A DNA stretch of 25,081 bases from Saprospiraceae bacterium (GTDB taxonomy: Bacteria > Bacteroidota > Bacteroidia > Chitinophagales > Saprospiraceae): contig JALEHC010000221.1 in assembly GCA_022763215.1 (NCBI GenBank), positions 1 to 25,081 on the forward strand, in the 5' to 3' direction. Below are positions 1 through 19,249 of this stretch, one piece after another (the first letter of the stretch is position 1; every line of letters begins with the position of its first letter). A program made the position numbers and the translations under genes. A model generated the notes under the pieces. It saw only the letters and a list, made by a program, of their open reading frames with translations. It searched no databases and was not told the origin of the DNA.

Positions 1-1332
1 GGAAACAATGGCGACTTCACCTTTAATATTTCTGATGACAACGTTACAATGGTTGGCGGACAAGCTTGTGTTGAAGTATCTGTTGAAAACTTCACGGATA
101 TTCTGGGCTTGCAATTTAGTATCAACTATGATCCATCCATTTTGGAATTTGTCTCTGTCGGTAATTTTGGCCTTACAGGGCTTAATGAGAACCTAATGGG
201 GTTGCCGACAGGCGGAACACAAGAAGGCCAGATTACAGTGTCGTGGATAGACAACTCACTGGCAGGTGTAAGTTTATCAGATGGAACCGTCTTGTTTGAG
301 CTGTGTTTTAACACACTTGCAGGTGGTAGTTCGGAGGTTGAAATTAGTAACAACCCAACAAGTGTCCAGGTATTGGATAACAATGATAACGTACTTCCAT
401 ACAATGCAAATGCAGGTACCGTGAATGTGACCGGAGGTCCACCACCACCAATGGGAGATGATTTTACACTGATTATATCTGATGAGTTTGTTCAGACCAG
501 TGGAAGTTCGGTTTGTGTAGAAGTGACAACACAGAACTTTACCAATATTTTGGGGATGCAGTTTAGTGTAAACTATAATCCTTCAAAACTGACCTTCGAG
601 TCTGTGGGTAATTTTAATCTGGATGGATTGAATCAAAACCTAATGGGCTTACCAAATGGTAATGGTACACAAGCGGGTAATATTACAGTATCCTGGATTG
701 ATAATGCACTCGCTGGGATTACACTTCCTGATAATACAGTATTGTTTGAAATTTGCTTTACAGCAGATTTGACATCGGGTACCACTCCTGTGGAATTGTC
801 AAATACACCAACTTCTATTCAGATATTGGATAATAACGATGAGGTGTTGATGCCAACTTTGGTGGATGGTTCTGTATCAATTGGTAATCCTGGAGATGGA
901 TTAAAGATTGACATCGAAGATGCAACGGTATGTTCTGATGACAATGAAACCTTCTGTGTGGGTGTAACGGTGGAAGACTTTACCGATATTTTGGGAATGC
1001 AGTTTAGTATCGTCTATGATCCAACAGATTTGGAATACTCCTCTGTTGGCAACTTCAACCTAGATGGCTTGAACGCTAACTTAATGGGCTTGCCTGATGG
1101 CGGACCGACTAGCACGCAACCTGGGGTGATTACACTGTCGTGGATTGATAATGCGCTGTCTGGTGTGTCTTTGCCAGATGGAACTGAGATATTTGAAATA
1201 TGCTTTGAGCCGCTGGCTCCAGAAGGAACTACAAGCAATATTGAGTTTTCTAATATGCCGACTAGTATCCAGGTTATTGATATAAATGATGCACAAGTAC
1301 CATTTATTGATGAGCCCGGGGTGATTACTTTT
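1..1332 (+). other. Three tandem cohesin-like beta-sandwich modules (~145 aa each; unit 1 is truncated at the window edge) inside the SprB-like CDS. They are also visible as ~430-bp DNA-level tandem repeats.
   Basis: Three units share (V/F)CVEV(T/S)..NFT(D/N)ILG(M/L)QFS(I/V)NY(D/N)PS.L.F.SVGNF.L.GLN.NLMGLP....Q.G.IT(V/L)SWIDN.L.G..L.D.T.LFE(I/L)CF......S..E.SN.PTS.Q(V/I)LD.ND.V. This pattern (G..V.V.V....I.G.QF.i.YDP..L....V..G ... G.I...F.....LF.i.F.a ... i.d.nd....dG.V.Ig) parallels type I cohesin signatures. The units are separated by short Pro/Gly linkers (PPPP at 439-450). Confidence 0.5.
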
Positions 1333-4300
1333 GATTGTAATCAGTTTTCTGCTCCAGTTATTCAGGAGCCTGCGACGATTACCAACAATGACTGTTTTGG
1401 TGACATGGATGGTAGCATTAGCATCAGTGTGAATGGTGGTAGTGGTGACTTTTCATATGCATGGTCAAGCCCAGCGGGTGTAGGCAGTGTATCTATGATT
1501 GACAACTTGTCTGCTGGTAACTATACGGTAACGGTAACCGATAATATGTCTGGCCAGACGGCGATTAAAACTTATACGATTACTCAGCCAGCCACACCTG
1601 TAACAATTAATTCAATTGATGTAACAGATATTGTTTGTCCTGGTGAAAATTCAGGTGCTATCAGTGTGAACGCTTCCGGCGGTACAGGCACATTAAGCTA
1701 TAGCTGGACGCCAAATGCGCCTGCAACAGCAAGTATCACTAACCTTTCAGCAGGAGAATTTTATAGAGTAACCATTACGGATGCCAATGGATGTGAGGAA
1801 GTATCTTCCTTCATCGAAGTAGCAGAACCTGAGGCAATCGCTACAAATGCAGTTGTTACAGATATTGCTTGTAGTGGTGAAGCAAATGGTTCGATTGATA
1901 TTACGCCTTCCGGCGGAACGGGCTCCTTGTTTGTAGATTGGGATGTACTTCCTGATTTCCAAACTTCGCACTCAAACTTGAGTGCAGGTACTTATACCGT
2001 TACAATATCAGATGGAAATAACTGTGAATTGGTAGAATCCTTTGAAATTACAGATCCTGATCCAATTGTAATAAACGAACAGGTCCAAGATGTAGAATGT
2101 GCCGGCGACATGAATGGCTTTGTTAATTTGAACGTAAGTGGAGGTACTGCTTCCGCAGGATATTCAATCGACTGGGCTGATGCTGGATTAACGGACGATG
2201 AAGGAACACAAATGAACTTGGCAGCTGGTTCTTATGAAGTTACGATTACGGATGATAATAACTGTTCGATTGTAGAGGTAATTGATATAAACGAACCAAG
2301 TGCAATTGAACTAAATCCAACCGTTGAAAATGTGCTATGTGCTGGTGAAAACTCTGGTACTATTAGCCTTAATATTACAGGAGGTACTCCAAACCCTGAT
2401 TATGCCATCAACTGGGGAGGTCCTCTTCCTGATGGTCAGAGTATGCAAGCACAGTTGCCTGCGGGGACTTACCCTGTTACCGTGACGGACGGGAATGGTT
2501 GTGCAGAGATACAGAATATTACAGTGGAAGAGCCGAATGCTCCTATCATTGTTACTGCTATGGTAGAAGACATTGCCTGTGAAGGTGGGCCGACTGGTAG
2601 TATTAGCCTTAGCATAAGTGGTGGTACACCTGGTAATGCAGGATATTCGATTGACTGGGCAACCCTCACTGATGGTGAAATGATGCAGGAAAACCTGGAA
2701 GCAGGTAATTACACGGTAAGTGTAACTGATGAAAATGGCTGCGAAACAGTAGAGTCATTTGTTGTAAACTCTGACGCACCGATATTTATCAATGGTACTG
2801 TTGAAGATGTAAGTTGTGCCGGAGAAAGTGATGGTGGTATTTCAATTACCCTTGCTGGTGGCTCACAAAATTTTGATATTTCATGGGATGGACCAGGTGT
2901 TGATCCGCTGGAAGCTCAGCAAGTTAATCTGGGTGCAGGTGAATATACAATAACGGTCACAGATACACAGTCTGGTTGTGAAAAAATTGAAACATTTGAA
3001 GTGGCTGAACCAGGCGAGCTGGCTGCAACAGCTGATATCCAGAATGCAGCGTGTTTCGCGGAAGCGACAGGCTCTGTAGTGCTGGATGTTACAGGAGGTA
3101 CCGAAAACTATACCATCGATTGGAGTGGAGGTATTTCACAAAATGAAACAAATCCAAGTGGTTTGTTGGCTGATGATTATATGGTAACCATCACCGATGC
3201 CAATGGATGTACCCTTGAACAAACAATTACGGTAGGTGAAGCTGCTGAAATCTCAGTGATGGCTGATCTTACTAATATTAATTGTTCGGGTGATGAAACA
3301 GGTGCAATTAGTATCAGTATTTCAGGTGGTACACCAATGTACACTAGAGATTGGACGGACTTACCTGATAACTTAAATACACAAAACAACTTGGGCGCTG
3401 GTACCTATGAATTGGTAATTACTGATGCTAATGGTTGTAATGAAACAGTAAGCTTTGAACTGACAGAACCAGATCCAATTGAGCTGAATGAAGTTGTAGA
3501 ATACGTTGATTTGGGCAATGATGGCTCTGTTGATTTAAGTACAACAGGTGGGGTAGAGCCTTACACTTTCGAGTGGTCGGGGCCAAATACATTTAGCAGC
3601 TCCTCAGAAGATTTGACTAACCTGAATGATATAGGTGAATACTGCGTAACTGTTACCGATGCCAATGGTTGTGTTTACGAAGAATGCCTCGATGTCCGTC
3701 TAAGATTACAGTTTGGGTTTGAAACAATACAGTTTTCTTGTGGTGATCTTGATAATGGCTTAATTGACCTGGAAGTATTGGGGGGATTAGAACCATATAC
3801 CTTTGATTGGGATGTAACGGGGGCAGCTGACTCGCCATTGCTTGATGGTGTGGGCGCCGGTACTTATACCGTAACCGTTACGGATGCAGAAGGGACTCAA
3901 ATTACTGGAACTTTTGAAGTTGGTGAATATCCTGGTTTGGTGGTTTCTGAGACATTGACTCCAGCTCAAGGTTTGGTTAATAACTTTAATGGAGCTATCA
4001 ATCTAAATATTTCAGGAGGTGCACAGCCATATGATATTATTTGGGACAATGGCTTTACAACAGCTAATATCAGCGGTCTTCAAGCCGGTACTTACTGTGT
4101 GACGATTACCGATGCCAATGGCTGTACGTTCGAAGAATGTTACATTATCGAATTCATTCCGGATGAACTTGAAATTGAAGAATCCATTGCCATTGAGGCA
4201 AATTGTTCTGGTGATGATAATGGTCGTTTGTTGATTACAGTATATGGCGGTATTCCACCTTATACTATGACGATTAACATTAATGGTACGGATGAAGTCA

Positions 4301-5907
4301 TTACGAGTGTGAACCGTGAATTTGAAATTGAAGGTCTTGCAGCTGGTAGTTATAGCTACACTGTTGTAGATGGAAATGGCGACATGGTAGCTGGATCGGA
4401 AACGGTAGAAGAACCAGATCCACTGACTTTGCAAGGATTTAACGTACGACACGATACGGAATTGACAGGACCTGGAATTGGTACTGGCCGTATTCAATTG
4501 AATATTCAAGGTGGTACACCAAACTATTCAGTAACATGGTTGGGTACGCCATTACAAGGGCCAACTATTATTTCTTTGGACTCTGAAATTTATACACCTC
4601 AAGTAGTAGATAGCAGAGGTTGTACTATCATTTTCCCAGAGATAGAAGTTGAAGAATTTGCGATTGACCTGGAAGGTACGCCAGCTGTATGTACAGGTGA
4701 TGAAAATGGTGCTGTTGACCTTGTTATTACGGATGGAGACATGCCGTATACCTTCAGCTGGGAGCTAGAAAATGGAGGTACAGCAACTACAGAAGATATC
4801 AATAACCTGCCAGCCGGTACTTATACGGTTACCGTTACCGAAAATTCTGGTAATACATTGGTTGAAAACATTACTATTGGTACGCAATCAAACTTACAAT
4901 TGGAAGCAGAAGTTGCAACCAACTATAATGGATTTGATGTAAGCTGTGCTGATAGTGCGGATGGTGAAGTAAGTGCAAATGCAATCTTTAATGGTGCTGC
5001 TTGTACCGATTGTGATTACGAATGGGTCTTGGAGGGTGAGCTATTAGGCGTAAATCAGACCCTTACAGATGCTCGACCAGGTACCTATGAACTGACGGTT
5101 ATCGATCCGTTGATGTGTGAAAATATACAAGAAGTTGTTTTGGTCGCTCCAGATCCACTTGTATTAAACTCAAACATTCAGGAAGTGGCTTGTCCAGGCG
5201 ATCGCAATGGTGTCATTACGGTTATGGTAACTGGTGGCGTTGGAGGTTTCTTTGATTATGATTGGAGTAACGGAAGTAGCACTTTCCAAAATGCAAATCT
5301 ATCTTCTGGTACATATGCCTTGACCGTAAGTGATGATAACAACTGTGAAGTTTCTGATTTATTCGAATTAGTTGATCCGGCTCCATTAGAAATCAACTTA
5401 CAAATAGAAAACGATACGGACCCTGAAGGTTGTAATGGTTCTGTTTGGGCCGTTGTAAATGGTGGTTTCCCGCCATATACCTATGATTGGAGCACCCTGG
5501 AGGTTGACGAAACGCAGGCATTAGTTGAAAGTGTATGCCCTGGTGCTTATGTCGTTTCAGTAACAGATGTAAGAGGATGTACTCAAGTATCTACGGTCGG
5601 AAATGTATTGAATCGTTCCTTTGATTGTTTGGAAGAACGTATCGTTATCACACCTGACGGGAATGGTTCAAATGATGAGTTCATTATTAACTGTATCGAA
5701 GAATTGATGGAAAATCATCTGGAAGTTTACAACAGATGGGGACAATTGGTATTCGAAACAGATAATTATGACAATACTTGGGAAGGTACTTCTCAGAATG
5801 GAGATGTGCTTCCGGAAGGTCCATATTTCTTTGTATTGGATTATAGAGATCCGATTACTAATGAGATGACACAGTACAGAGGTTCAATGACAATTTTGAA
5901 AGAATAA
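1..5907 (+). CDS. SprB-like giant cell-surface gliding adhesin, 5'-truncated by the window edge (frame 1 is open from nt 1; >=1968 aa in window). It has cohesin-like modules, ~18 SprB-type repeats and a T9SS type B C-terminal domain.
   Basis: One uninterrupted ORF to the TAA at 5905-5907. The reading frame is open from nt 1, and the first ATG at 49 lies inside repeat unit 1, so the gene starts upstream of the window. Recurrent ~80-100 aa units carry the motifs C.G..(N/D)G.I and GG(T/S)..Y...W, typical of SprB repeats from Flavobacterium gliding adhesins. The C-terminal ~98 aa (ITPDGNGSNDEFIIN...YNRWGQLVFE...W.G...G..LP.G.YFF.L) match the gliding-motility-associated (T9SS type B) CTD. Confidence 0.9.
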   Translation, partial: GNNGDFTFNISDDNVTMVGGQACVEVSVENFTDILGLQFSINYDPSILEFVSVGNFGLTGLNENLMGLPTGGTQEGQITVSWIDNSLAGVSLSDGTVLFELCFNTLAGGSSEVEISNNPTSVQVLDNNDNVLPYNANAGTVNVTGGPPPPMGDDFTLIISDEFVQTSGSSVCVEVTTQNFTNILGMQFSVNYNPSKLTFESVGNFNLDGLNQNLMGLPNGNGTQAGNITVSWIDNALAGITLPDNTVLFEICFTADLTSGTTPVELSNTPTSIQILDNNDEVLMPTLVDGSVSIGNPGDGLKIDIEDATVCSDDNETFCVGVTVEDFTDILGMQFSIVYDPTDLEYSSVGNFNLDGLNANLMGLPDGGPTSTQPGVITLSWIDNALSGVSLPDGTEIFEICFEPLAPEGTTSNIEFSNMPTSIQVIDINDAQVPFIDEPGVITFDCNQFSAPVIQEPATITNNDCFGDMDGSISISVNGGSGDFSYAWSSPAGVGSVSMIDNLSAGNYTVTVTDNMSGQTAIKTYTITQPATPVTINSIDVTDIVCPGENSGAISVNASGGTGTLSYSWTPNAPATASITNLSAGEFYRVTITDANGCEEVSSFIEVAEPEAIATNAVVTDIACSGEANGSIDITPSGGTGSLFVDWDVLPDFQTSHSNLSAGTYTVTISDGNNCELVESFEITDPDPIVINEQVQDVECAGDMNGFVNLNVSGGTASAGYSIDWADAGLTDDEGTQMNLAAGSYEVTITDDNNCSIVEVIDINEPSAIELNPTVENVLCAGENSGTISLNITGGTPNPDYAINWGGPLPDGQSMQAQLPAGTYPVTVTDGNGCAEIQNITVEEPNAPIIVTAMVEDIACEGGPTGSISLSISGGTPGNAGYSIDWATLTDGEMMQENLEAGNYTVSVTDENGCETVESFVVNSDAPIFINGTVEDVSCAGESDGGISITLAGGSQNFDISWDGPGVDPLEAQQVNLGAGEYTITVTDTQSGCEKIETFEVAEPGELAATADIQNAACFAEATGSVVLDVTGGTENYTIDWSGGISQNETNPSGLLADDYMVTITDANGCTLEQTITVGEAAEISVMADLTNINCSGDETGAISISISGGTPMYTRDWTDLPDNLNTQNNLGAGTYELVITDANGCNETVSFELTEPDPIELNEVVEYVDLGNDGSVDLSTTGGVEPYTFEWSGPNTFSSSSEDLTNLNDIGEYCVTVTDANGCVYEECLDVRLRLQFGFETIQFSCGDLDNGLIDLEVLGGLEPYTFDWDVTGAADSPLLDGVGAGTYTVTVTDAEGTQITGTFEVGEYPGLVVSETLTPAQGLVNNFNGAINLNISGGAQPYDIIWDNGFTTANISGLQAGTYCVTITDANGCTFEECYIIEFIPDELEIEESIAIEANCSGDDNGRLLITVYGGIPPYTMTININGTDEVITSVNREFEIEGLAAGSYSYTVVDGNGDMVAGSETVEEPDPLTLQGFNVRHDTELTGPGIGTGRIQLNIQGGTPNYSVTWLGTPLQGPTIISLDSEIYTPQVVDSRGCTIIFPEIEVEEFAIDLEGTPAVCTGDENGAVDLVITDGDMPYTFSWELENGGTATTEDINNLPAGTYTVTVTENSGNTLVENITIGTQSNLQLEAEVATNYNGFDVSCADSADGEVSANAIFNGAACTDCDYEWVLEGELLGVNQTLTDARPGTYELTVIDPLMCENIQEVVLVAPDPLVLNSNIQEVACPGDRNGVITVMVTGGVGGFFDYDWSNGSSTFQNANLSSGTYALTVSDDNNCEVSDLFELVDPAPLEINLQIENDTDPEGCNGSVWAVVNGGFPPYTYDWSTLEVDETQALVESVCPGAYVVSVTDVRGCTQVSTVGNVLNRSFDCLEERIVITPDGNGSNDEFIINCIEELMENHLEVYNRWGQLVFETDNYDNTWEGTSQNGDVLPEGPYFFVLDYRDPITNEMTQYRGSMTILKE
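1369..5610 (+). repeat. About 18 tandem SprB-type repeat units (protein-coding) forming the stalk of the adhesin.
   Basis: Counted GG..(P)Y...W motifs, e.g. SVNGGSGDFSYAWSS, SGGTGTLSYSWTP, GGTENYTIDWSG, GGVEPYTFEWSG, GGLEPYTFDWDV, GGAQPYDIIWDN, GGFPPYTYDWST. Each is preceded by a C.G...G.I segment and followed by a (Y/T)TVT(V/I)TD.NGC strand. Confidence 0.7.
5611..5904 (+). other. T9SS type B C-terminal sorting domain (gliding motility-associated CTD, TIGR04131-like).
   Basis: NRSFDCLEERIVITPDGNGSNDEFIINCIEEL..LEVYNRWGQLVFETDNYDNTWEGTSQNGDVLPEGPYFFVLDYRD.....YRGSMTILKE matches the consensus FTPNGDG.ND.F.I.G......L.I.NRWG..V.E...Y.N.W.G...G..LP.GTY.Y... Confidence 0.85.
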
Positions 5908-6009: not shown

Positions 6010-6987
6010 ATGAAAAAGATACTTCTACTTTTAATTTCTATAACGGCATGCTTTTCCCTGGCTGCACAGGATGAAGCAATTTTTAATCAGTATCACATCA
6101 ATCCGATCTTGGTAAACCCTGCTTATGCTGGTTTTGAGCGTACTCCTAAAGCAGGTGGTATTGGGTTTTCTGATGATGATTTTAACGGAGTGCATATTTT
6201 ACAAGCAAACTACCGCGGGCAGTGGTCTGGGTTTGATGGTGCGCCTAAAACATATATGTTGTCTTACCATGGCCCAATTAGTAATACTTTTGGTCTGGGG
6301 GTAAGCCTTGGTTCTGAAACAGCTGCACAAATGCGCCGTTTCAAAGGTCAATTGAATATGGCGTTCCGCTTTCCTATCAAGGATAATTTCAGATTGACGA
6401 TTGGCCCTTCTTTGGAGGTTCAGCAAATGACTGTTGATAATGGCGTTGTAGACGATCCGTTCTATATTCCTTCTGATGAAACCCTGGAAGAGTTTATTAA
6501 CGGTAAGCGAGAATTTGATGCATCCTTAGGTATTATGGGAGAAATCAAGCAAAATACTTTGATTGGTTTGTCTTTTGCCAACTTGGTTCGTGCGCGTTTA
6601 GATAATATTTCTGACGATCAGCAAGAATCTTTCTTTTCTTATTACACTTTCTTTGCAAGACATCGATTCCAGGTAGCAGGGCCAGATTTTGAGTTGGTTC
6701 CGTCTATGATGATTCGTCAGTTAAGAGATGCACCTTTCCAAATTGATTTTAATTTGATGGCCAATTTTATGGTCGGAGAAAATAAAGACAATAGATTATC
6801 AGCTGGTCTATCCTATCGCTTTGGTGATTTGGGGGTACTATTAGGGTTTAATGTGTTCAATATTGATGTTTATTATGGATATGACGTTTCTTTCCGTCGA
6901 TTCCAGAAATTTAACATGGGTTCACACGAAATTACTATTGCTTATAAGCTGGTAAAAAAGAAAAGCGCTAATAAAGCGCAGCAATAA
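6010..6987 (+). CDS. Type IX secretion system outer-membrane protein, PorP/SprF family.
   Basis: A 325-aa ORF with ATG at 6010 and an N-terminal signal peptide (MKKILLLLISITACFSLAAQ). The family-typical N-terminal motif FNQY.INP.LVNPAYAGF follows. The size and beta-rich composition fit a beta-barrel. The gene sits immediately downstream of a type B CTD protein gene, which is the canonical sprB-sprF arrangement. Confidence 0.85.
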   Translation: MKKILLLLISITACFSLAAQDEAIFNQYHINPILVNPAYAGFERTPKAGGIGFSDDDFNGVHILQANYRGQWSGFDGAPKTYMLSYHGPISNTFGLGVSLGSETAAQMRRFKGQLNMAFRFPIKDNFRLTIGPSLEVQQMTVDNGVVDDPFYIPSDETLEEFINGKREFDASLGIMGEIKQNTLIGLSFANLVRARLDNISDDQQESFFSYYTFFARHRFQVAGPDFELVPSMMIRQLRDAPFQIDFNLMANFMVGENKDNRLSAGLSYRFGDLGVLLGFNVFNIDVYYGYDVSFRRFQKFNMGSHEITIAYKLVKKKSANKAQQ

Positions 6988-8012: not shown

Positions 8013-8540
8013 TTAAATCGGTTTTTGGGATGGCCTCTCTCCTAGGCAGACTGGAGGGGGGCTTTTTATTTTTTCTATATTTTGATATTCTTTTTCTTTT
8101 GGGGGCTCGGGGGCCAATATGCCGCTGGCCATGATTAATACGCCGATTCCGCCCAGAATACTTGCCATTAAGGTTGGCGATAATGAAAAATGCCAATTAT
8201 CTTCTCTTTTCCTTCCATAATGAAAGGCCAATAATAAAATGAAGGATGCAAATCCTGCAATTAACCAGGCTGTTTTTTCCACTATAGTTTTTTGAGTTTT
8301 GCTTTTCAGCAAATGATAATCTTTCGCATGAGCAGGCACCTGACTGCGATTGTTTTCATCTACGCTGTTTATGTTGCTCTTCCTAATTTTGGAGCGGAGA
8401 CAGCTTTCGCTATCTCCGCAAGTACAAACCAGGCTTTTACCTGGAAAAATTGAATTATTTGTTGATATGTTGCCAGCCAATATCGTATAGGCATAGATTG
8501 TGATGAGCAGACAACAGATCAACGGTTTATTTATAATCAT
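8013..8540 (-). CDS. Small membrane protein of unknown function. It has an N-terminal hydrophobic anchor, a CTCGDSESC cysteine cluster and two predicted TM helices.
   Basis: ATG at 8540 (complement) lies 5 nt after the stop of the upstream gene, suggesting an operon. The hydrophobic segments are LICCLLITIYAYTILAG, AWLIAGFASFILLLAFHY and LMASILGGIGVLIMASGILA. The last ~20 codons are encoded by the reverse complement of a hairpin repeat (8021-8076), so the true C-terminus is uncertain. Confidence 0.5.
   Translation of the reverse strand: MIINKPLICCLLITIYAYTILAGNISTNNSIFPGKSLVCTCGDSESCLRSKIRKSNINSVDENNRSQVPAHAKDYHLLKSKTQKTIVEKTAWLIAGFASFILLLAFHYGRKREDNWHFSLSPTLMASILGGIGVLIMASGILAPEPPKEKEYQNIEKIKSPPPVCLGERPSQKPI
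8021..8076 (+). repeat. Copy 2 of the TTTGGGATGGCCTCTCTCC ... GGNGGGGGGC-T-run hairpin, a terminator-like repeat.
   Basis: GCCTCTCTCC (8033-8042) pairs with GGAGGGGGGC (8053-8062); the stem forms in RNA using G.U pairs. TTTTTATTTTTT follows. The first 21 nt are near-identical to copies at 7011 and 17831. Confidence 0.5.
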
Positions 8541-8545
8541 GAGCT

Positions 8546-9349
8546 TTAAACATTTGGTTTGTTCAGGGAAACACTATTGTTACTTTGGTTTTCAAATACT
8601 TCTTCGATGTCCCATTTTTCAGAAAAAGGTTTATCGATTGTTTTAGGGCCCGCAAAATTGTAAAGCAAACCACCTCCGGCCAGCAAAATGATGATCGGAA
8701 GACAACCGCTCATGGAAGCACCTGCCGATCCGCCGGCAAATAAGGGAAATAAGATTGCTGCTGCAAAAGCTTGTTTAATCATAGCGAACAATAAAGCGAT
8801 TCCCAGGCCAATACCAATTATGGTAGCCGCACCACCAATTAATTTGCCAAATAGACCAAAATCGTTCAGTATCGTAATTTTTGTAACTGAGGTACGCGGC
8901 AGGTAGGATTTGTCTTTGAAAAATACATATTCCTGACTGATATGTTGCAAACGTCCCTTTTTGAAGTGATTTTCTCCATCCTTTCTATAATCTGCCCTAA
9001 TTCTGATCCCTTTTTTAACGATTCTTTTTAGCCTTCTTTTTTTGAGTTTGAAAATCCACTTTCGCAAACCCTTTGGAGCTTTCATTTGCTTTTCGAGTTG
9101 AGCCATAATTTCTTCATGACTCGTTGTGGCTCTCTTAAAGGATTGTAAATCTTGTAATGGAATTTGGTGAAGTTCAGAGGAAGTGGTACTACATCTGATA
9201 TAGAAAAGAGATTCGCCTGCGATGGAATCGAAGCGGATATTAATCTTGCTTCCATCTTTAAGGAATAGGGTACTGCAATCAGAGACGTTTTGTGCTTGGA
9301 CTGATAAATAGAAAAATACCAGAATACTGCTTGTGATTAAATTTTTCAT
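8546..9349 (-). CDS. Secreted/membrane-anchored protein of unknown function. It has a signal peptide, two small KDG-containing beta modules, a polybasic amphipathic segment and a C-terminal glycine-zipper TM pair.
   Basis: ATG at 9349 (complement). The signal peptide is MKNLITSSILVFFYLSVQAQ. Two related ~45-aa modules are present (FLKDGSKINIRFDSIAGESLFY... and DYRKDGENHFKKGRLQHISQEYVFF...). The highly cationic stretch is RKWIFKLKKRRLKRIVKKGIRIR. The Gly/Ala-rich TM helices are GGAATIIGIGLGIALLF and LFAGGSAGASMSGCLPIIILLAGGGLL. Confidence 0.6.
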   Translation of the reverse strand: MKNLITSSILVFFYLSVQAQNVSDCSTLFLKDGSKINIRFDSIAGESLFYIRCSTTSSELHQIPLQDLQSFKRATTSHEEIMAQLEKQMKAPKGLRKWIFKLKKRRLKRIVKKGIRIRADYRKDGENHFKKGRLQHISQEYVFFKDKSYLPRTSVTKITILNDFGLFGKLIGGAATIIGIGLGIALLFAMIKQAFAAAILFPLFAGGSAGASMSGCLPIIILLAGGGLLYNFAGPKTIDKPFSEKWDIEEVFENQSNNSVSLNKPNV

Positions 9350-9377
9350 ATGTAGGTTTTTTGGTTGATTGATACTT

Positions 9378-9385
9378 CAAAAGTA
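9378..9385 (-). promoter_or_regulatory. Candidate Bacteroidota sigma-A -7 element (TACTTTTG = TAnnTTTG) for the 9349-to-8013 operon.
   Basis: On the minus strand the motif TACTTTTG lies 28 nt upstream of the ATG. There is no Shine-Dalgarno sequence, as is typical of Bacteroidota. Confidence 0.3.
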
Positions 9386-10295
9386 TAGGGATGGGAGCGA
9401 AATAGTCAGGAAAATGATCATAGCAAAATATATAAAATACTTTAATGTCGATAATTTTAATGTCGAACTACGAATAGAAGGAAATAATGTTGTTAAATCT
9501 GATGGGGTGATAAGCTACTGATTTTTAAACTATTACATATTTGTGTTTATGTGGTTTCTCTATTTATATATAAAAAAATAACAAAGCGATTGAGCTGGAG
9601 TGAATTTGGCATAGTTTTTTCTATACTATGATTGACTGTTGGAAACATCCGATAAAGCTCGGATCGACACCGAACTAGAAAAAAGAATAAAAAACATATA
9701 AAAATTGTTTAATTTGATTTTTTGGCACGGTTTTTTCAATAGATAAAGTAGCAACAGAAAAGGAAAACAGCGTATATAAAAAGTACGAGAATTCCTGTTT
9801 TGTGCAACAAACATACTGAAGCCGAAAGGTTTCCAAACATACTACAGACGTTATAAAGGCGTCATTAATCGGTATCCAAAATAGGATGCCAATCAACTAT
9901 GAGCGATTACAACACTACACACATATGTGGATAAAGGAGAAGTAAGCGTACTATGAGAAAATAATTTTGCTTGCCTTCTCAACAGTGAATTTCCGTTTGC
10001 TGTTTTCTTCCACATCAATTGGCAGAAGCACCAAGAAATGCTTCATACAATCAGTAATAACCATTAAGTAAGGATTTAAGTAGATGATTTTGTGTCATTT
10101 AGTGTAGGATTTGCCGAAAGGCGAGCCACTAAAGACAGGGGAGAGGTATGTCTGATTGAACCGAAAAATACAGAATACTATAACGGATAGTGCCGATGGC
10201 ACAAGCGTCTAAGCATAACACCGCATAGCGGTGAACAGGATACGTATAACCAAAATTTCACACATATTTTTTAGTAATTTTAAACTACATCAAAA

Positions 10296-13200
10296 ATGAA
10301 AAACGTACTACTATCCCAGAATTGGGACCGAGAAAGCTTTGCTCCAAAGGAAGCAAACAACAACAAATTGGCAAACTGGTTGATTAAAGCAACACTTCTT
10401 TTTGCCTTACTTTTTAGCTCTTTGACAACAACTAACGCGCAATGTACCTTATTTTGTAATGGTACTTCGCAAACAACCGCTTTACCACTTTCTGTTAACA
10501 ACTCATGCGAGAGTGTAATTCTGGCGAGCCAACTGATCGATATGGATCAGACAGATTGCCCAGATGGAAAGCGACTGACCGTGAGAGACGAAATGAATAG
10601 TCAAATCGCGGAAGACATTGACCAAGTGGTATTTGATGCCACCGATTATATCGGCGAAGTGGTTAGTGTAACAGTGACCGACACAACTACCGGCTTATTT
10701 TGCGTAAGCTTCGTGGAAATCATTGACAATTTGCCTCCATCAGTAGACTGTCAGTCGGCTATGGTAAAATGTGTTGCAGACACAAGTGCAGCAGCAATTG
10801 GATTTCCAACGATTACAGACAATTGTGACAATGACGTGGTGCTAACCTATGTCGATAACATGGACGATCAGCCTTGTTTTGCACCGAATACACTTGTCAT
10901 CAATAGAGTGTGGACAGCCAGAGATGCTAGTAATAATGTAAGCACCTGTTCACAGACTATCTTAGTAGACCGTCCAAACTTAAATGAAATTGACTTTCCG
11001 GATGGGCTGGTACTGGATTGTGATAATGCAGATGTCGGATTGGATGTAACAGGGCAACCATCGATTACGGATGAAGTGATTGACAACAATGGCTTTTGTG
11101 ATTTGACCGTAACTTTTGCAGATGATACCTTATATACATGTGGAACGATAGAGTACGAGATTGTAAGAACATGGACGGTAGAAGATGATTGCTCTGATCA
11201 AACTGCTGTTTCTACACAAACAATTACAGTAACTGACCAGACCGCACCTGATATTACTTGCCCAGATAATGTGATGGTTCAGACTTTACCTGGCCAGTGT
11301 TATACTACGGTGACTTTACCAGAACCGACTTTGAGTGACAACTGTGACCCGAATGCAACCTTCTTAGTCAATACTTCGTATGGATCGGTTGGTACAGGAC
11401 CACACCCATTCGTACCGGTAGGAACGCATTCTGTACAGTATACTGGAGTTGATTTTTGTGGAAATGCAGTAGTGTGTACAATTGCCCTGAACGTAGTTGA
11501 TGATGAAGAACCGGTAGCTGTATGTAGTGACTTTACCGCTGTTTCGATTCCTTCTTCTGGGCTTGCAATGGTATCTGCGACTACTTTTGATGATGGAAGT
11601 AATGACAACTGTGCAACGGAGCTTTATTTTAAAGCTAAGAAGATGACAGATGGTACTTGTAATAACGCGAATGGTGATGACTCAAATGACCCTGGCAATC
11701 AGGAATGGTTTGATGATAGTGTGATCTTCTGCTGCGCAGAGACGGATACAGATGCACAAGTAATGATGCGTGTATATGAAATTGATCCGGGTGACGGACC
11801 AGTTGAACCAGGAAGAGAAGCACCAGGTGGAGATTTGTTTGGCCACTTTACAGAATGTATGGTAAATGTAAGCGTGCAGGATAAAATCAACCCAGTATTT
11901 ACCAACTGTCCGAATGATTTGACAATTACATGTACAGAAGATATTTCAGACTTGTCTGTTTTTGGAGTGGCACATATTGTAGACAATTGTTCTGCAACGC
12001 TAGATTCTACAGAAGTTATTGACATCAGTTCATGTGGTGAAGGAGCTATTACAAGAACCTTTACTGCGACGGATCAATCAGGTAACCAAACACAATGTGT
12101 ACAAACGATTAGCGTGATCAATGGTGATCCATTTGATGAGAATGATATTGTTTGGCCAGGCGACGTAACACTTGAGACATGTGGCGCAGGTACAGACCCA
12201 GAAGATTTGCCAGACGGTTTGCAGGAACCTCAGATATTGAGTGAAGATTGTACTATGGTTGCCTATAACTACGACGATCACTTGTTTGACATTGCCTTCC
12301 CGGCTTGTTACAAGATCTTGAGAACATGGACGGTCATCGACTGGTGCCAGTATGATCCAAATGATCCGGATGCAGAAGGACGATTTAGCGATGTACAAGT
12401 TATTAAAGTGGAAGATAATGAAGCACCGATAATGGATTGTCCAGATGATATAGTAGCGGCGGTTTCTACTAACTGCAACACAGGTACTGTAACACTTGAT
12501 CCACTAACAGCAGATGATTGTAACCCGAATGTATTGATTACGAACAATTCACCTTATGCAGATGCAGGTGGTGCGAATATCAGCGGTGAATATCCACTTG
12601 GACAAACGATAGTAACGATTACGGCTTCTGACAGATGTGGAAATACAACGACTTGCGAAGTCATGGTAACCGTAGAGGATTTGAGTGCACCTTCACCAGT
12701 ATGTATCGTGGGTATCTCAGCGAGCTTGGTCGAGATGAATGGCGAAATAATGGCAACGATTAATGCAGATGCCTTTGATGGCGGAAGTACTGATAATTGT
12801 ACATCACCAGAAGATTTGGATCTACTGATTCGGGTAGCGGGTGATGGACCAACAAATACGGCACCTACAACCTCACAACTTGTGTTTAACTGCGAAGATG
12901 TCGGGTCACAAGTGATCGAATTCTGGGCAGTCGATGAAGAAGGAAATGGTGATTTTTGTACGACTTATGTACTGATTCAGGATAATATGAACTTGTGTCC
13001 AGCTACGACAACAAGCGGTATGATAGCGGGTAGCATCAATACAGAAATGGGTGAAACAGTCGAAGATGTAATGGTGTACATCAACGCACCGGGCAACAAT
13101 CAGAGTATGACGAATATAGACGGTACATTTGAGTTCCTTGGTATTCCATTCGGATTTGATTATGCACTGGTACCTGAGAAAAATGACCAAGTAACGAACG

Positions 13201-14273
13201 GAGTGAATACACTGGATATGATCAAAATCTCGAGACATATTCTTGGCGTACAAAAATTGGATTCACCATACAAAATGATTGCTGCTGATGTGGATGGCTC
13301 TGGTAGCATCTCGGTTCTGGACCTAGTATACATGAGAAAGTTGATCTTGAATGTAAGCGAAAACTTCCCGAACAATACCAAATCATGGAAGTTTATCCCG
13401 GCTGACTATGAATTCACGGATGACACGAACCCATTTGCGGATGATTATCCAACAGCCTCTTCGATTGATGACTTTGATGTAAGCGAAATGTATACGGACT
13501 TTATTGGAGTGAAAATGGGAGATGTAGACAACTCAGCACAGCCAAATAGCTTGTTTGCACCAACGAACGACGATAACAGCAACAACTTAGTGATCAATAC
13601 AGAGAATACATATTTGCCGCAAGGCGAAGAAATAGAGGTACCATTTAGCGTAAGCGACATGCAAAATATCAATGGCTACCAGTTTACACTGAATGTTGAT
13701 CTTGATCAGGTAGAGATTGTAGAAGTTCTGGAAGGTGATTTGCCAGAGATGAATGAAGATAACTTCGGAATTGCGATGGAAGATGGCTGGATCACAACAA
13801 GCTGGAATGCAGCACCAGATGCAGAGTTGGCAGAAGATACGAGACTGTTTACACTGGTACTGAGAGCGAAAACGGACATTGAAGTGGCGAATGTGATCGA
13901 GTTGACATCGGATGTGACGGCTGCTGAAGCTTATGACACAGATGACAAGCAGAGCGGTGTTGATTTGAACTTTAGCCAGAATGTGACTGCAACGAACACG
14001 GTACAGGCAGAAGGCTACGAATTGTATCAGAATACGCCGAATCCGTTCCGCGATCAAACAACAATCGCCTTCGATTTGCCGGAAGCTGGGTATGCTGTAC
14101 TTACGATCTACAATGCGGCTGGAACGGAGCTATACAGAAAAGAAGGACAATATGCTGCCGGACGAAACAGCATTATGATCCAGAGACATGATTTGAATGC
14201 AAGCGGAGTAGTTTACTACAAGCTACAAACCAAGCAATTCGAAGCAACTAAGAAGATGGTAATCACAAAATAA
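10296..14273 (+). CDS. Large secreted T9SS type A cargo protein (1325 aa). Its domains in order are: multiple HYR/Ig-like modules, a CarbopepD-regulatory-like beta-sandwich, a dockerin-like module, a cohesin-like module, and a Por_Secre_tail CTD.
   Basis: ATG at 10296. The signal peptide has an unusually long n-region, with cleavage near NAQ/C at aa 48. HYR-type motifs recur (P.I.CP......C......P...DNCD ... G.H.V.YT..D..GN...C...V.V.D...P), along with RTWTV.D.C...QTI.V.D..AP signatures. The C-terminal YELYQNTPNPFRDQTTIAFDLPEAGYAVLTIYNAAGTELY...SGVVYYKL....ATKKMVITK matches the T9SS type A CTD. Confidence 0.9.
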   Translation: MKNVLLSQNWDRESFAPKEANNNKLANWLIKATLLFALLFSSLTTTNAQCTLFCNGTSQTTALPLSVNNSCESVILASQLIDMDQTDCPDGKRLTVRDEMNSQIAEDIDQVVFDATDYIGEVVSVTVTDTTTGLFCVSFVEIIDNLPPSVDCQSAMVKCVADTSAAAIGFPTITDNCDNDVVLTYVDNMDDQPCFAPNTLVINRVWTARDASNNVSTCSQTILVDRPNLNEIDFPDGLVLDCDNADVGLDVTGQPSITDEVIDNNGFCDLTVTFADDTLYTCGTIEYEIVRTWTVEDDCSDQTAVSTQTITVTDQTAPDITCPDNVMVQTLPGQCYTTVTLPEPTLSDNCDPNATFLVNTSYGSVGTGPHPFVPVGTHSVQYTGVDFCGNAVVCTIALNVVDDEEPVAVCSDFTAVSIPSSGLAMVSATTFDDGSNDNCATELYFKAKKMTDGTCNNANGDDSNDPGNQEWFDDSVIFCCAETDTDAQVMMRVYEIDPGDGPVEPGREAPGGDLFGHFTECMVNVSVQDKINPVFTNCPNDLTITCTEDISDLSVFGVAHIVDNCSATLDSTEVIDISSCGEGAITRTFTATDQSGNQTQCVQTISVINGDPFDENDIVWPGDVTLETCGAGTDPEDLPDGLQEPQILSEDCTMVAYNYDDHLFDIAFPACYKILRTWTVIDWCQYDPNDPDAEGRFSDVQVIKVEDNEAPIMDCPDDIVAAVSTNCNTGTVTLDPLTADDCNPNVLITNNSPYADAGGANISGEYPLGQTIVTITASDRCGNTTTCEVMVTVEDLSAPSPVCIVGISASLVEMNGEIMATINADAFDGGSTDNCTSPEDLDLLIRVAGDGPTNTAPTTSQLVFNCEDVGSQVIEFWAVDEEGNGDFCTTYVLIQDNMNLCPATTTSGMIAGSINTEMGETVEDVMVYINAPGNNQSMTNIDGTFEFLGIPFGFDYALVPEKNDQVTNGVNTLDMIKISRHILGVQKLDSPYKMIAADVDGSGSISVLDLVYMRKLILNVSENFPNNTKSWKFIPADYEFTDDTNPFADDYPTASSIDDFDVSEMYTDFIGVKMGDVDNSAQPNSLFAPTNDDNSNNLVINTENTYLPQGEEIEVPFSVSDMQNINGYQFTLNVDLDQVEIVEVLEGDLPEMNEDNFGIAMEDGWITTSWNAAPDAELAEDTRLFTLVLRAKTDIEVANVIELTSDVTAAEAYDTDDKQSGVDLNFSQNVTATNTVQAEGYELYQNTPNPFRDQTTIAFDLPEAGYAVLTIYNAAGTELYRKEGQYAAGRNSIMIQRHDLNASGVVYYKLQTKQFEATKKMVITK
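11247..11510 (+). other. HYR (hyalin-repeat) domain 1 of the 10296-14273 CDS.
   Basis: PDITCPDNVMVQTLPGQCYTTVTLPEPTLSDNCDPNATF...VGTHSVQYTGVDFCGNAVVCTIALNVVDDEEP. Confidence 0.6.
12423..12704 (+). other. HYR domain 2 of the 10296-14273 CDS.
   Basis: APIMDCPDDIVAAVSTNCNTGTVTLDPLTADDCNPNVLI...YPLGQTIVTITASDRCGNTTTCEVMVTVEDLSAP. Confidence 0.6.
13167..13349 (+). other. Dockerin-like module (two F-hand repeats) in the 10296-14273 CDS.
   Basis: KNDQVTNGVNTLDMIKISRHILGVQKLDSPYKMIAADVDGSGSISVLDLVYMRKLIL matches the type I dockerin duplicated segment D.N.DG.VN..D...L.RY.L. It is preceded by a CarbopepD_reg-like segment (GSINTEMGETVEDVMVYIN...TNIDGTFEF). Confidence 0.55.
13581..13973 (+). other. Cohesin-like module in the 10296-14273 CDS.
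   Basis: LVINTENTYLPQGEEIEVPFSVSDMQNINGYQFTLNVDLDQVEIVEV..GDLP....DNFGIAMEDGWITTSWNAAPD..L..DTRLFTLVLRAKTD...ANVIELTSD follows the same pattern as the three modules at 1-1332 (…NILGMQFS.NYDP..LEF.SV ... ITVSWIDN ... LFEICF). Confidence 0.45.
14013..14270 (+). other. T9SS type A C-terminal sorting domain (Por_Secre_tail, TIGR04183-like).
   Basis: YELYQNTPNPFRDQTTIAFDLPEAGYAVLTIYNAAGTELYRKEGQYAAGRNSIMIQRHDLNASGVVYYKLQTKQFEATKKMVITK. Confidence 0.85.
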
Positions 14274-14655: not shown

Positions 14656-17400
14656 ATGAAATTAGATGTACAACAGCAGCTCCAGTGGTGGGCCTATTGC
14701 AATGATCGTGCTTTGCAAAACAAACCTCTCTTATACAAATACTTATTCTTGGCTTCTTGGGCAATATTTTTTGCCGGAAACCTGAATGCACAGCAATGTG
14801 GCGCTATTTGTGATGATTTGGTTACTGTTACGCTTAACTCTACAGGTTTGGGTGCCGCACCTGCAACAACCTTTGATGAAGGAACAGCAGCTTCCTGCTG
14901 TGTCGATTTTTTTGAAGTAAAACGCATGACTGACCCGGATGCGGCCTTCAATTCCAGTGTCGTATTTTCTTGTGCCGACGTCGACAACGGTCCGGTATCT
15001 GTTATTTTAAGAGTAGTTGGCTGTGATGGCTCTACCAGTACCTGCATGTCCCTAGCGAATGTGGAAGATAATATTGATCCGGTATTGGCTTGCCCAAACC
15101 CCATGACGGTTGGTTGCGGCCTGGGCGATAGCTCTCCGTCTATGACTGGACAGCCGGAAGTAACAGAAGCTTGCGGTGTGGCCGACTTGTTTTATATAGA
15201 CAATACCTTCGATACCAACTGTGGTGGAGGTTTTATAGAACGCGTATGGACGGCAACTGACCCTTCCGGAAATGCAGGCACTTGCGTGCAAATTATAAAC
15301 ATTGAAGATACGACGCCATTGATGGTCGATTTCCCAGATGACTATACGGTAAACTCTTGTGTAACCGTGGATGATCTGGACCCAGAAGATTTGCCAGCTC
15401 CTTTTGACTTTCCGGTTATTAATGGGGATGATTGCGAAATGGTATTTCAAAGTCATGAAGACTTTGTATTTACGGCAAGTGGAAATTCCTGTATCAAAAT
15501 ATTGAGAACCTGGAAAATTATTGACTGGTGTGTTTATAACCCAGGAGGAACAGATGGATTATACGAAGATGTACAAATTATCAAAGTAAACGATAATGCA
15601 CCTCCAACTTATGATTGCCCGGAGGACTATACCGTTGCTTTTCTTGATAGTGATTGTGATACTGATATCACAATTCCGATGCCAGATAATATTGACGATT
15701 GTTTACCGGATGTAGATGTGCATGTAAGTGGTGTGCTTGGAACCGGATTTAGTTATGAAGATGTCGGGGAAGGTACTTATGGTTTTACGTATACGCTGAC
15801 AGATGGTTGTGGTAATTCCAGTAGTTGCAGCATTAATGTAACGGTCGTAGATGGGAATGCACCAGACTTTGTTTGTTTGAATGGATTGGCGGTTTCTTTG
15901 ATGCCGAGTGGAATGATAGAGTTGGCAGCCGATGATTTTATTCAGTATGTGAGCGATAATTGTACCGCCACTTCCAATATCCAATTGCGAATTGGTGGGG
16001 CACCAGAACCGGGGCAAGATGATCCACCTGCTGAAAATAGCATTGTTTTTACATGTGATGACCTCGGCAATAATGTAGTGGCTATCTGGGCTGGTGATGA
16101 GGCTGGCAATTGGGATTATTGCCTTACTTATGTAGAAATTCAGGACAATAGCAATGGTTGTAACCCTATTACTGGGGGTATAAGCTTGGGTGGATACATC
16201 CAGAATGAAGACGGTGCTGAGTTAGAAAACATTATGGTGCGCCTAAATGAGGACGAAGAATTAGAAAGTATGACAGACTCTATTGGGGGCTATATGTTTG
16301 AACCAATTGAGCCAGGTATAGATTACTCCATCAAACCAGAAAAAGACACCAGTTATATGGAAGGTGTAAATACGTTGGATTTGATTTACTTGATGCGTCA
16401 TATTACGGGTACAGATCCTTTGGAGTCGCCCTATAAAATTATTGCAGCAGATATTGATAATTCTGGTAATGTCAGCATTATGGATGCAATATCTTTGCAG
16501 CGATGTATTTTATCGGTTACGGATACTTTCCCGAATAATACGAGCTGGCGATTTGTGAAATCTTCTTACTTATTCCCAAATCCGCTAAATCCGTTTACAC
16601 CACCATTTCCAGAGCAGATTGAAGCAGATAGCATGCTGCTAAATATGTTTAATGCTGACTTTGTGGGTATTAAGGTTGGTGATCTGGATAATTCTAGTAT
16701 GGCTTCTGCATTGCAGGAAACTACAGATCGTTCTGGCAATTTGTTGTTGTATACCAAGGAGCAACAGTTCAATGAAGGAGAAAAAGTTATGATTGAAGTA
16801 CGTGCTGCTGATTTTGCTTCATTGGCAGGTATGCAATGGGCTTTTGAGTTGGATTTGACTTCCGTCAAATGGGAATCTGTTCTTCCTGGAGTCATTCCGA
16901 TGGATGGTACAAATGCACATTTATCGAAAGATGGTCAATTGCGTTTTAGTTGGGCTACTGGCAATGCCTATACGGTAAAACAAGATGATATCTTGTTTAC
17001 TATTGTATTAGAAGCTTTAGCTGATAATAATATTAGTAATATTTTTCAGATGAATAGTCAATCTGCTTGGAAAAAAGCTTATTTGTCTAACAATCTGAAT
17101 AAGGTGGAAACACAATTGTTTGTGCAACAAGGAGATGCAAGTACCCTTGAGGTAATGGAAGCCTATCCGAATCCAACTGTAGGGCAAACAATGATTCCAT
17201 TTGTACTACCACAGCAAGCGGAGGTTCAGTTGAATGTATGGGACTCGAATGGACAATTGATTTTTTCAAATAAGCAAATATTTGCTGCAGGCCAGCATGC
17301 ATGGGCTATTGAAGCCAATGATTTGCCGGTATCAGGTACTTATTGGTATGAAGTAAAAACAGACGGAAAGACAAGCAGAGCAAAGCTAGTCAAACTATAA
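14656..17400 (+). CDS. Paralogous T9SS type A cargo protein (914 aa). Its domains in order are: HYR/Ig-like modules, a CarbopepD-regulatory-like segment, a dockerin-like module, a cohesin-like module, and a Por_Secre_tail CTD.
   Basis: ATG at 14656. The signal peptide has a similarly long n-region (…AIFFAGNLNAQ/QC). Residues 1-914 align colinearly with residues ~405-1325 of the upstream gene. Examples: CIKILRTWKIIDWCVYNP...EDVQIIKVNDNAPP vs CYKILRTWTVIDWCQYDP...SDVQVIKVEDNEAP, and VNTLDLIYLMRHITGTDPLESPYKIIAADIDNSGNVSIMD vs VNTLDMIKISRHILGVQKLDSPYKMIAADVDGSGSISVLD. The C-terminus EAYPNPTVGQTMIPFVLPQQAEVQLNVWDSNGQLIF....SGTYWYEVKTDGKTSRAKLVKL is a type A CTD. Confidence 0.9.
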   Translation: MKLDVQQQLQWWAYCNDRALQNKPLLYKYLFLASWAIFFAGNLNAQQCGAICDDLVTVTLNSTGLGAAPATTFDEGTAASCCVDFFEVKRMTDPDAAFNSSVVFSCADVDNGPVSVILRVVGCDGSTSTCMSLANVEDNIDPVLACPNPMTVGCGLGDSSPSMTGQPEVTEACGVADLFYIDNTFDTNCGGGFIERVWTATDPSGNAGTCVQIINIEDTTPLMVDFPDDYTVNSCVTVDDLDPEDLPAPFDFPVINGDDCEMVFQSHEDFVFTASGNSCIKILRTWKIIDWCVYNPGGTDGLYEDVQIIKVNDNAPPTYDCPEDYTVAFLDSDCDTDITIPMPDNIDDCLPDVDVHVSGVLGTGFSYEDVGEGTYGFTYTLTDGCGNSSSCSINVTVVDGNAPDFVCLNGLAVSLMPSGMIELAADDFIQYVSDNCTATSNIQLRIGGAPEPGQDDPPAENSIVFTCDDLGNNVVAIWAGDEAGNWDYCLTYVEIQDNSNGCNPITGGISLGGYIQNEDGAELENIMVRLNEDEELESMTDSIGGYMFEPIEPGIDYSIKPEKDTSYMEGVNTLDLIYLMRHITGTDPLESPYKIIAADIDNSGNVSIMDAISLQRCILSVTDTFPNNTSWRFVKSSYLFPNPLNPFTPPFPEQIEADSMLLNMFNADFVGIKVGDLDNSSMASALQETTDRSGNLLLYTKEQQFNEGEKVMIEVRAADFASLAGMQWAFELDLTSVKWESVLPGVIPMDGTNAHLSKDGQLRFSWATGNAYTVKQDDILFTIVLEALADNNISNIFQMNSQSAWKKAYLSNNLNKVETQLFVQQGDASTLEVMEAYPNPTVGQTMIPFVLPQQAEVQLNVWDSNGQLIFSNKQIFAAGQHAWAIEANDLPVSGTYWYEVKTDGKTSRAKLVKL
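15601..15852 (+). other. HYR domain of the 14656-17400 CDS.
   Basis: PPTYDCPEDYTVAFLDSDCDTDITIPMPDNIDDCLPDVDV...EGTYGFTYTLTDGCGNSSSCSINVTVVDGNAP. Confidence 0.6.
16327..16515 (+). other. Dockerin-like module of the 14656-17400 CDS.
   Basis: KDTSYMEGVNTLDLIYLMRHITGTDPLESPYKIIAADIDNSGNVSIMDAISLQRCIL. Confidence 0.55.
16738..17070 (+). other. Cohesin-like module of the 14656-17400 CDS.
   Basis: LLLYTKEQQFNEGEKVMIEVRAADFASLAGMQWAFELDLTSVKWESVLPG...DGQLRFSWATGNAYTVKQDDILFTIVLEALAD. Confidence 0.45.
17143..17397 (+). other. T9SS type A C-terminal sorting domain.
   Basis: LEVMEAYPNPTVGQTMIPFVLPQQAEVQLNVWDSNGQLIFSNKQIFAAGQHAWAIEANDLPVSGTYWYEVKTDGKTSRAKLVKL. Confidence 0.85.
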
Positions 17401-17946: not shown

Positions 17947-18315
17947 TTGGCAAGACATAACGACATCGGACAGCAAGGCGAGGCACTAGCTCAAAACTAC
18001 CTGAACAACGCAGGCTTCGAAATACTGGAACAAAACTGGCGCCATAGTAAAGCAGAAGTGGACTTGATTGCAAAAGATGGAGCCATTTTAGTGTTTATAG
18101 AAGTAAAAACCAGAAGTTATGCTCATTTTGGCCAACCCGAGGCGTTTGTCACACCCAAGAAAATGCAACTCTTGGCCAAAGCAGCATCTGTATATATGGA
18201 GCAAATTGGTCATGACTGGGAGATTCGCTTCGATGTCGTTTCTGTCATTTTACCGGAAGGTAAACCACCCCAAATTCAACATTTTCCGGATGCTTTCTTT
18301 CCTGGCCTGGCCTAA
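17947..18315 (+). CDS. yraN: YraN-family (UPF0102) predicted PD-(D/E)xK-like endonuclease. It uses a TTG start codon.
   Basis: The 122-aa product begins MARHNDIGQQGEALAQNYL..GFEILEQNWR...EVDLIAKDG..LVFIEVKTR, which is the typical YraN N-terminus with its E...D...E.K pattern. The ORF opens after the TAA at 17923-25, and the first in-frame start is TTG at 17947, with no upstream ATG. The stop is TAA at 18313-15. Confidence 0.75.
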   Translation: MARHNDIGQQGEALAQNYLNNAGFEILEQNWRHSKAEVDLIAKDGAILVFIEVKTRSYAHFGQPEAFVTPKKMQLLAKAASVYMEQIGHDWEIRFDVVSVILPEGKPPQIQHFPDAFFPGLA

Positions 18316-18893: not shown

Positions 18894-19249
18894 AGGACTA
18901 CTTTGAATGTCAAAACGTTTTGTCAGATTTTGACTTCCCAAAATATGTTAAATTTGTACAGAAAGGAAAGAAATACACCTTCCATTTGATGACCCATAAA
19001 AATATTACAATGAGCAGAGGCTTAAGTTTGATTTTTACTTGTTTGATTACCTACCACTTGAGCTTGCCTGCCCAGCATAATTCACTTTGGCAATTGGCAA
19101 GTCATTTTTAGAAAACAATCAAGTGGAGCTGTACATTTAGGTAGGTAACGAACAAGCCGTAATGGCCAAAGGCACAGACCTACAACTCAAAGCAGCCGCA
19201 AAGGAACTGCTGCGGTGAGCGAGCAAGAGCAAAAAGAGAGTAACATATT

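Follow-up and report, generated by a model that had tools for sequence, protein, structure and literature searches.

The question raised by this locus is what a tandem array of cohesin-like modules contributes to a SprB-type surface protein in a member of the Saprospiraceae, given that cohesin-dockerin pairs are a textbook form of modular extracellular assembly that is understood almost solely in Gram-positive cellulosome producers. The window, i.e., the whole stretch of DNA analysed here, spans, from end to end, one 25,081-nt contig of a Saprospiraceae MAG, in which frame 1 of the plus strand is open from position 1 to a stop codon at 5907. The assembly cuts this gene inside the cohesin array, so that its N-terminus, with the signal peptide and the true number of modules, is missing from the contig; the contig probably ends there because such arrays are assembly-prone. 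The product of positions 49-5904 was 100% identical to P0101 (MCI5081559.1), which already bears the name 'cohesin domain-containing protein' at NCBI. An exact look-up of the 1952-aa product returned no match and no sequence upstream of window position 1, and scans of genome and metagenome contigs for the upstream sequence yielded only relatives at 34-38% identity, with the missing part recovered from none of them.

Three units were identified head-to-tail on the plus strand at 1-447 (unit 1), 448-897 (unit 2), and 898-1338 (unit 3, the module closest to the SprB repeats), each 441-450 nt in length. Their start-to-start spacings were 447 and 441 nt (450/447 and 453/450 nt for other segments, giving a range of 441-453 nt across segments), with a period of ~445 nt; thus, the tandem triplication expected from the original prediction was real, whereas its period of ~430 bp was not. 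The encoded proteins shared 58-59% amino-acid identity over ~149 aa (59% between units 1 and 2), and ungapped 150-nt stretches compared between units were 65% and 70% identical. The tandem repeat at 1-1338 is accordingly real and far beyond chance. The two strings that had first drawn attention to the similarity, at 987-1021 and 547-580, encode ILGMQFS-x-x-Y-D/N-P, the most conserved peptide motif of the units. Tandem Repeats Finder (TRF) did not call the ~447-nt period in the window because the copies are too diverged, their identity being too low. Unit 1 had been thought to be truncated by the window edge, but it was essentially complete (profile positions 4-139 of 139), and what the edge removes is the 5' part of the gene that lies upstream.

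With each unit scored alone against the Pfam Cohesin family (PF00963; cut-off, 24.1 bits), units 1, 2, and 3 reached 43.1, 40.3, and 34.2 bits, respectively, and the whole protein reached 77.7 bits. A profile built from 32 modules of the array protein and its relatives matched solved cellulosomal cohesins in the PDB (E = 1.5e-7, positions 3-144). In addition, the AlphaFold2 (AF2) model of unit 2 (mean pLDDT 94.4) formed a nine-strand beta-sandwich, for which cohesins made up all 50 of the 50 best Foldseek matches in the PDB, with TM values of 0.72-0.79 to type I cohesins. The best of these matches (6kgf, 3ul4, and 2vn5) were type I cohesins crystallised with their own dockerins. Hence the modules, originally described as cohesin-like, are true cohesins by Pfam, PDB profile, AF2, and Foldseek, and share sequence homology, not fold alone, with the dockerin-binding type I cohesins. 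Conservation over 792 modules was confined mainly to core residues and a cysteine pair, and when these modules were examined for conservation of the 8-3-6-5 sheet, through which type I cohesins bind, no obvious binding face stood out, the per-strand information being nearly flat at 1.4-2.3 bits.

In unit 1, the two cysteines occupy aa 23 and 102 (nt 67-69 and 304-306), within 'VCVxV' of strand 2 and 'FExCF' of strand 6, and may form a disulphide across the sandwich. The pair is kept in most of the 792 modules and is absent from the first, post-signal-peptide module of the relatives, whose N-terminal module may represent a distinct subtype.

Downstream of the array, the same reading frame encodes ~18 SprB-type repeat units of ~78 aa each, forming a rod or stalk (1366-5613, plus strand; Pfam SprB PF13573, 329 bits over 15 stretches). 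A self-built HMM placed 18 SprB units at aa 456-1871, and direct-repeat families in this region were spaced by 234-240 nt. The protein ends in a T9SS type B C-terminal sorting domain (CHU_C/TIGR04131) at 5644-5907, stop codon included, with scores of 80.7 bits for PF13585 (aa 1882-1963; cut-off, 27 bits) and 45 bits for TIGR04131 (cut-off, 35 bits). The assignment to a SprB-type protein was therefore borne out by both its SprB repeats and its type B domain, and the identity and architecture of the array protein as read here are considered close to certain. Pfam searches of the array protein and of the single units for carbohydrate-binding families gave no match. Directly 3' of the array gene, a gene at 6010-6987 (plus strand) encodes a PorP/SprF-like outer-membrane shuttle or anchor (PF11751, 146.8 bits), the protein of which had a 2.2-kb Logan contig at 99% identity as its sole match in an exact look-up. 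Orthologues of this gene at 47-49% identity occupied the same position in the related loci L001 and L008, and the gene was also kept in L009.

A PorP/SprF-like protein retains type B cargo at the cell surface by way of the cargo's C-terminal domain (PMC9143113). The PorP/SprF-like protein encoded downstream serves such cargo as its cognate shuttle (PMC9143113, PMC12618676), and adhesion is the known or predicted role of SprB-type and other type B cargo (PMC12618676). Since type B cargo is anchored by its C-terminus, we infer from this literature that the N-terminal cohesins would form the distal tip of the filament, and the 'base' of the stalk, where the modules had been placed, would be the wrong end (PMC9143113).

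The closest full-length orthologue, P0020, is a collinear protein of 2593 aa (63% identity) with 7 cohesins, 18 SprB units, and the C-terminal domain. Units 2 and 3 of the window are positional orthologues of its modules 6 and 7, the latter being its last (69% and 66% identity, respectively), which suggests that about four cohesin modules and the signal peptide have been lost from the window and that the array, of which at least 3 modules are present here, probably comprises ~7; the expectation of more copies upstream is thus likely to be right. In full-length relatives, the protein opens with a short hydrophobic leader, and the first cohesin starts from about residue 20.

Comparison of unit number across strains, as had been proposed, uncovered differences. 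L001 (a MAG) carried 8 modules and L002 (a metagenome contig) carried 6, with flanks 98.5-100% identical; the difference consists of a two-module block that is present twice in L001 at 100% identity. As this block adjoins a run of N, at ~2413-2512 inside the cohesin array of L001, it could be a scaffolding or assembly artefact. Copies in L001 share an exact run of 417 nt. L008, a frameshifted long-read assembly, carried 15 modules, some pairs of which shared 91-97.5% nucleotide identity and exact runs of up to 134 nt, and L009 carried 12. Module number in the relatives overall ranged from 3 to 15, and array length evolves in them by module duplication and loss. The frameshifts of L008 divide its array gene in three.

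Two further genes were observed at the upstream side of the related loci. A small gene of ~255-266 aa, encoding a signal peptide, one cohesin, and a type A sorting domain, lies directly 5' of the array gene in every relative (L001, 150-950; L008, 8965-9762; L009, 9431-10195; and also L002-L006), and the position of its counterpart in the window falls beyond the contig end. At the upstream edge of the locus, L008 (89-751) and L009 (160-846) encode a LuxR-type response regulator (Response_reg + GerE), which may control the cluster.

The combination of cohesins with a SprB-family adhesin had been regarded as unusual, but when 1.84 billion cluster representatives were searched with a profile, 11,874 proteins were returned at E <= 1e-3, with 1,362 at E <= 1e-30. 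Among the best 150 of these 50%-identity cluster representatives, SprB-type units were found in 122 and a CHU_C-like tail in 106, and 104 combined both with a cohesin array. The proteins of this best-150 census carried 3-13 cohesins, which start from about residue 20, just past the signal peptide, and lead straight into SprB repeats. A Pfam check of every sixth of the best 150 (n = 25) detected Cohesin in 25/25, SprB in 21/25, and CHU_C in 20/25. The cohesin array followed by SprB repeats and a type B domain is therefore a large recurrent family and no oddity, in line with the existing NCBI name; it comprises more than 100 diverged clusters, several of them in cultivable genera (Phaeodactylibacter, Lewinella, and Haliscomenobacter). 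A search with the SprB/CTD tail gave homologues that were short proteins or fragments only, and SprB/CHU_C proteins without cohesins exist. Accordingly, the units do not correspond to divergent Ig-like spacers common to all SprB homologues, the scenario against which the original prediction had been set. Searches of open-access papers turned up none on cohesin arrays borne by SprB-like or T9SS proteins, nor any on dockerins of Saprospiraceae, an absence that is no proof.

Potential partners of the cohesins are encoded next door by two T9SS type A cargo genes on the plus strand. The first (10296-14273; Pfam HYR, Cohesin, and Por_Secre_tail) contains HYR domains, a dockerin at 13176-13400, a cohesin-like module at ~13575-14009, and a Por_Secre_tail, and the second (14656-17400) ends in the same C-terminal cassette, with a dockerin at 16339-16560, a weak cohesin-like module at ~16729-17136, and a Por_Secre_tail (30.7 bits). 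Against PF00404 (Dockerin_1; cut-off, 22.9 bits), the first dockerin scored 38.2 bits as an isolated 75-aa segment and 21.9 bits in context, and the second scored 31.2 and 18.3 bits, respectively, both in-context scores thus falling just below the cut-off. In the gene at 14656-17400, local HMMs gave 104.1 bits for the dockerin and 31.3 bits for the cohesin. The dockerin segment is a duplicated loop-helix, situated in the gene at 10296-14273 just upstream of the Pfam cohesin. A profile of 49 dockerin segments matched the solved dockerins 4uyp_B, 4dh2_B, 2ccl_B, 1ohz_B, and 1daq (E = 5e-8 to 1e-4), and the AF2 model of the dockerin (pLDDT 80.4) had three helices, with dockerins as all 26 of its 26 best Foldseek matches in the PDB (TMq <= 0.72). 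A strict regular expression (D.[ND].[DN]G.{5}[DE]) had no match over the window, which is a false negative, the dockerins being confirmed by profile and fold.

The cassette, in which a dockerin is followed by a cohesin-like module and a type A sorting domain (~375 aa), had 204 homologues at E <= 1e-5, those named coming from Saprospiraceae, Haliscomenobacter, Phaeodactylibacter, and Lewinella, and a full dockerin segment was present in 103 of the 120 cassette homologues listed out of these 204. The cassette gene adjoins the cohesin-array gene in all four loci with enough flank (the window, L005, L008, and L009). What is new here is that dockerins are carried on two neighbouring type A genes and that this linkage recurs in three related loci. 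Cassette genes are multi-copy and also occur away from array genes (L010 and L012), and adjacency may therefore hint at pairing. Dispersed cassette genes are as would be expected if the array had multiple clients. The cohesin-like module adjoining each dockerin was more divergent than the array cohesins; it could itself be the real partner of the dockerin, whether inside a single molecule or head-to-tail from one molecule to the next. As a separate observation, positions 1-11686 of L012, which belongs to one assembly with L008, hold a second cluster of several dockerin-cassette genes (HYR + Dockerin and Doc-Coh-CTD) and no cohesin-array gene, so that a single genome contains multiple, dispersed dockerin carriers.

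The explanation that we favour, with odds a little better than even, is that the array protein is a T9SS type B, SprB-like filament whose distal cohesins dock the neighbouring dockerins. Docking of dockerins as the function of the array, taken by itself, is a plausible but somewhat less than even proposition, drawn from homology and synteny. The protein would be laid out as a signal peptide (lost here), the cohesin array, ~18 SprB repeats, and the type B C-terminal domain, and by analogy with SprB/SprF of Flavobacterium johnsoniae and PG1035/PorP of Porphyromonas gingivalis it would be exported by Sec and then by the T9SS translocon. The PorP/SprF-like barrel encoded at 6010-6987 would, by the same analogy, collect the protein and hold its C-terminal domain at the cell surface, while the rod of SprB repeats would project the cohesin array outward from the cell, and the filament may travel along the gliding track. 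The distal cohesins would then offer scaffoldin-like docking sites for the dockerins of the cargo proteins encoded at 10296-14273 and 14656-17400, and a single filament could display several HYR-domain surface proteins. In the course of evolution, array length changes through unequal recombination among younger modules that still resemble one another; units 1-3 are too diverged for this. A broader proposal, which we regard as speculative and rather unlikely, is a T9SS-based cohesin-dockerin surface assembly in Saprospiraceae, in which 3-15 tip cohesins would load type A cargo (HYR-domain adhesins and perhaps enzymes encoded elsewhere), the Doc-Coh cassette may allow further branching, and the whole would mirror the cellulosome scaffoldin in Gram-negative, aerobic bacteria, the array length being tuned by unequal recombination.

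Dockerins need not be what the array binds. The cohesin fold is a beta-sandwich like that of carbohydrate-binding modules, the known or predicted role of type B cargo is adhesion, and the array occupies the distal N-terminus in every full-length relative, all of which would suit an adhesive tip for a different ligand (a polysaccharide, an algal or prey surface, or a matrix component); the dockerins would then pair with their own adjacent cohesin-like modules, as the fixed Doc-Coh tandem would also allow. However, the sequence homology of the modules to dockerin-binding type I cohesins, the presence of dockerins beside the array gene in every locus with enough flank, and the lack of a match to any carbohydrate-binding family argue for docking, so that the adhesive tip is a minority possibility, given perhaps half the weight of the filament that docks neighbouring dockerins. 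It is considerably less probable that the modules are passive Ig-like spacers, which would lengthen the filament and bind nothing. Such spacers would be compatible with a module number that varies from 3 to 15 in the relatives and with conserved positions that are mostly core residues, but length is already provided by the ~18 SprB repeats, the array is always at the distal tip, units 2 and 3 have kept positional orthology with the last two modules of P0020, and each module has been under purifying selection, with dN/dS values of 0.14-0.26 for units 1-3 over saturated dS.

The age of the units bears on the remaining alternative, namely that the DNA repeat was triplicated recently and that, in this strain, recombination makes it a copy-number (contingency) locus. 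Nucleotide identity among units 1-3 was 58-67% (58-62% in the codon alignment), third-position identity in that alignment was 36-45% and near saturation, dS was above 1.5 or not computable (saturated), and the longest exact run common to the units was 11-14 nt. The similarity of the units at the nucleotide level arises because amino-acid conservation alone yields 58-62%, and the units are ancient paralogues under purifying selection; recent duplication of units 1-3 is rejected on the strength of the saturated dS, the 58-62% identity, and the runs of at most 14 nt. Given this high divergence and the short shared runs, units 1-3 are poor substrates for homologous recombination and represent the old, stable end of the array. 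The tandem arrangement, the contig break inside the array, and the relatives in which near-identical modules differ in number would be in keeping with a contingency locus, yet no more than 14 identical bases in a row are found among units 1-3, third positions are near saturation, TRF was silent, and the duplicated block of L001, adjoining a run of N, could stem from scaffolding. For units 1-3 this reading is largely refuted, and we consider it the least probable of those weighed here. The earlier suggestion of copy-number change by recombination thus finds no credible substrate in these units, and what survives of it is that module number differs among relatives, with 6 and 8 modules in two near-identical strains, 15 in a further one, and 3-13 across the census.

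Compared with known systems, the locus resembles the clostridial scaffoldins (CipA/ScaA, with type I pairs) in its tandem cohesins of ~145 aa, their nine-strand beta-sandwich, and the dockerin proteins encoded nearby. It differs from them in its host, a Gram-negative member of the Bacteroidota (Saprospiraceae), and in the use by the array protein of a T9SS type B domain and a PorP/SprF-like barrel instead of SLH/sortase, with no CBM3. Furthermore, the dockerin carriers here combine HYR domains with T9SS type A tails and lack glycoside hydrolases, the array modules have a conserved cysteine pair, and the pairing is here a prediction from sequence. Pfam detected no CBM or GH families in the array protein and the two dockerin proteins, which in this respect depart from a scaffoldin. 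Like SprB of F. johnsoniae and other type B cargo with cognate SprF/PorP-like proteins, the array protein has SprB repeats and a type B C-terminal domain, and its gene is directly followed by one of the porP/sprF type, whereas it has an N-terminal cohesin array and is much smaller than the 669-kDa SprB. To our knowledge, SprB of F. johnsoniae has no cohesin array. Cohesin- and dockerin-like modules outside cellulosomes, occasionally found together in a single protein, were reportedly described by Peer et al. in 2009 (FEMS Microbiol Lett; cited in PMC6487960), and the present modules are similar in occurring outside cellulosome producers and, in the Doc-Coh cassette, in being joined in one protein. 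Unlike such orphan modules, the long arrays here are mounted on a defined secretion and anchoring chassis and show conserved synteny with dockerin genes, which makes the pairing testable.

As such, the locus offers a concrete, testable case for the role of non-cellulosomal cohesins and dockerins. Should the binding prove real, it would reveal how surface filaments are decorated in gliding Bacteroidota and would supply protein engineering with new orthogonal cohesin-dockerin pairs; otherwise, the array protein would rank as an unremarkable member of a large family of surface adhesins that is annotated already.

Several other features were observed in the window. Between the porP/sprF and dockerin genes, the minus-strand ORFs 8013-8540 and 8546-9349 look like small membrane or secreted proteins and are followed by an unusually long intergenic gap (9350-10295). 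Like the minus-strand ORFs 20495-21451 and 21652-23787, they have no Pfam match at E <= 1e-3, and the products of these four ORFs measure 175-711 aa. The genes for a GNAT acetyltransferase (18312-18941) and an adenylate/guanylate cyclase domain protein (19250-20389), situated downstream of the surface-protein cluster, are probably unrelated housekeeping or signalling genes. Lastly, an imperfect tandem repeat with periods of 6, 18, and 24 nt (TCCACA-like) was located at 24425-24506, inside the minus-strand ORF 23947-24624 (no Pfam match).
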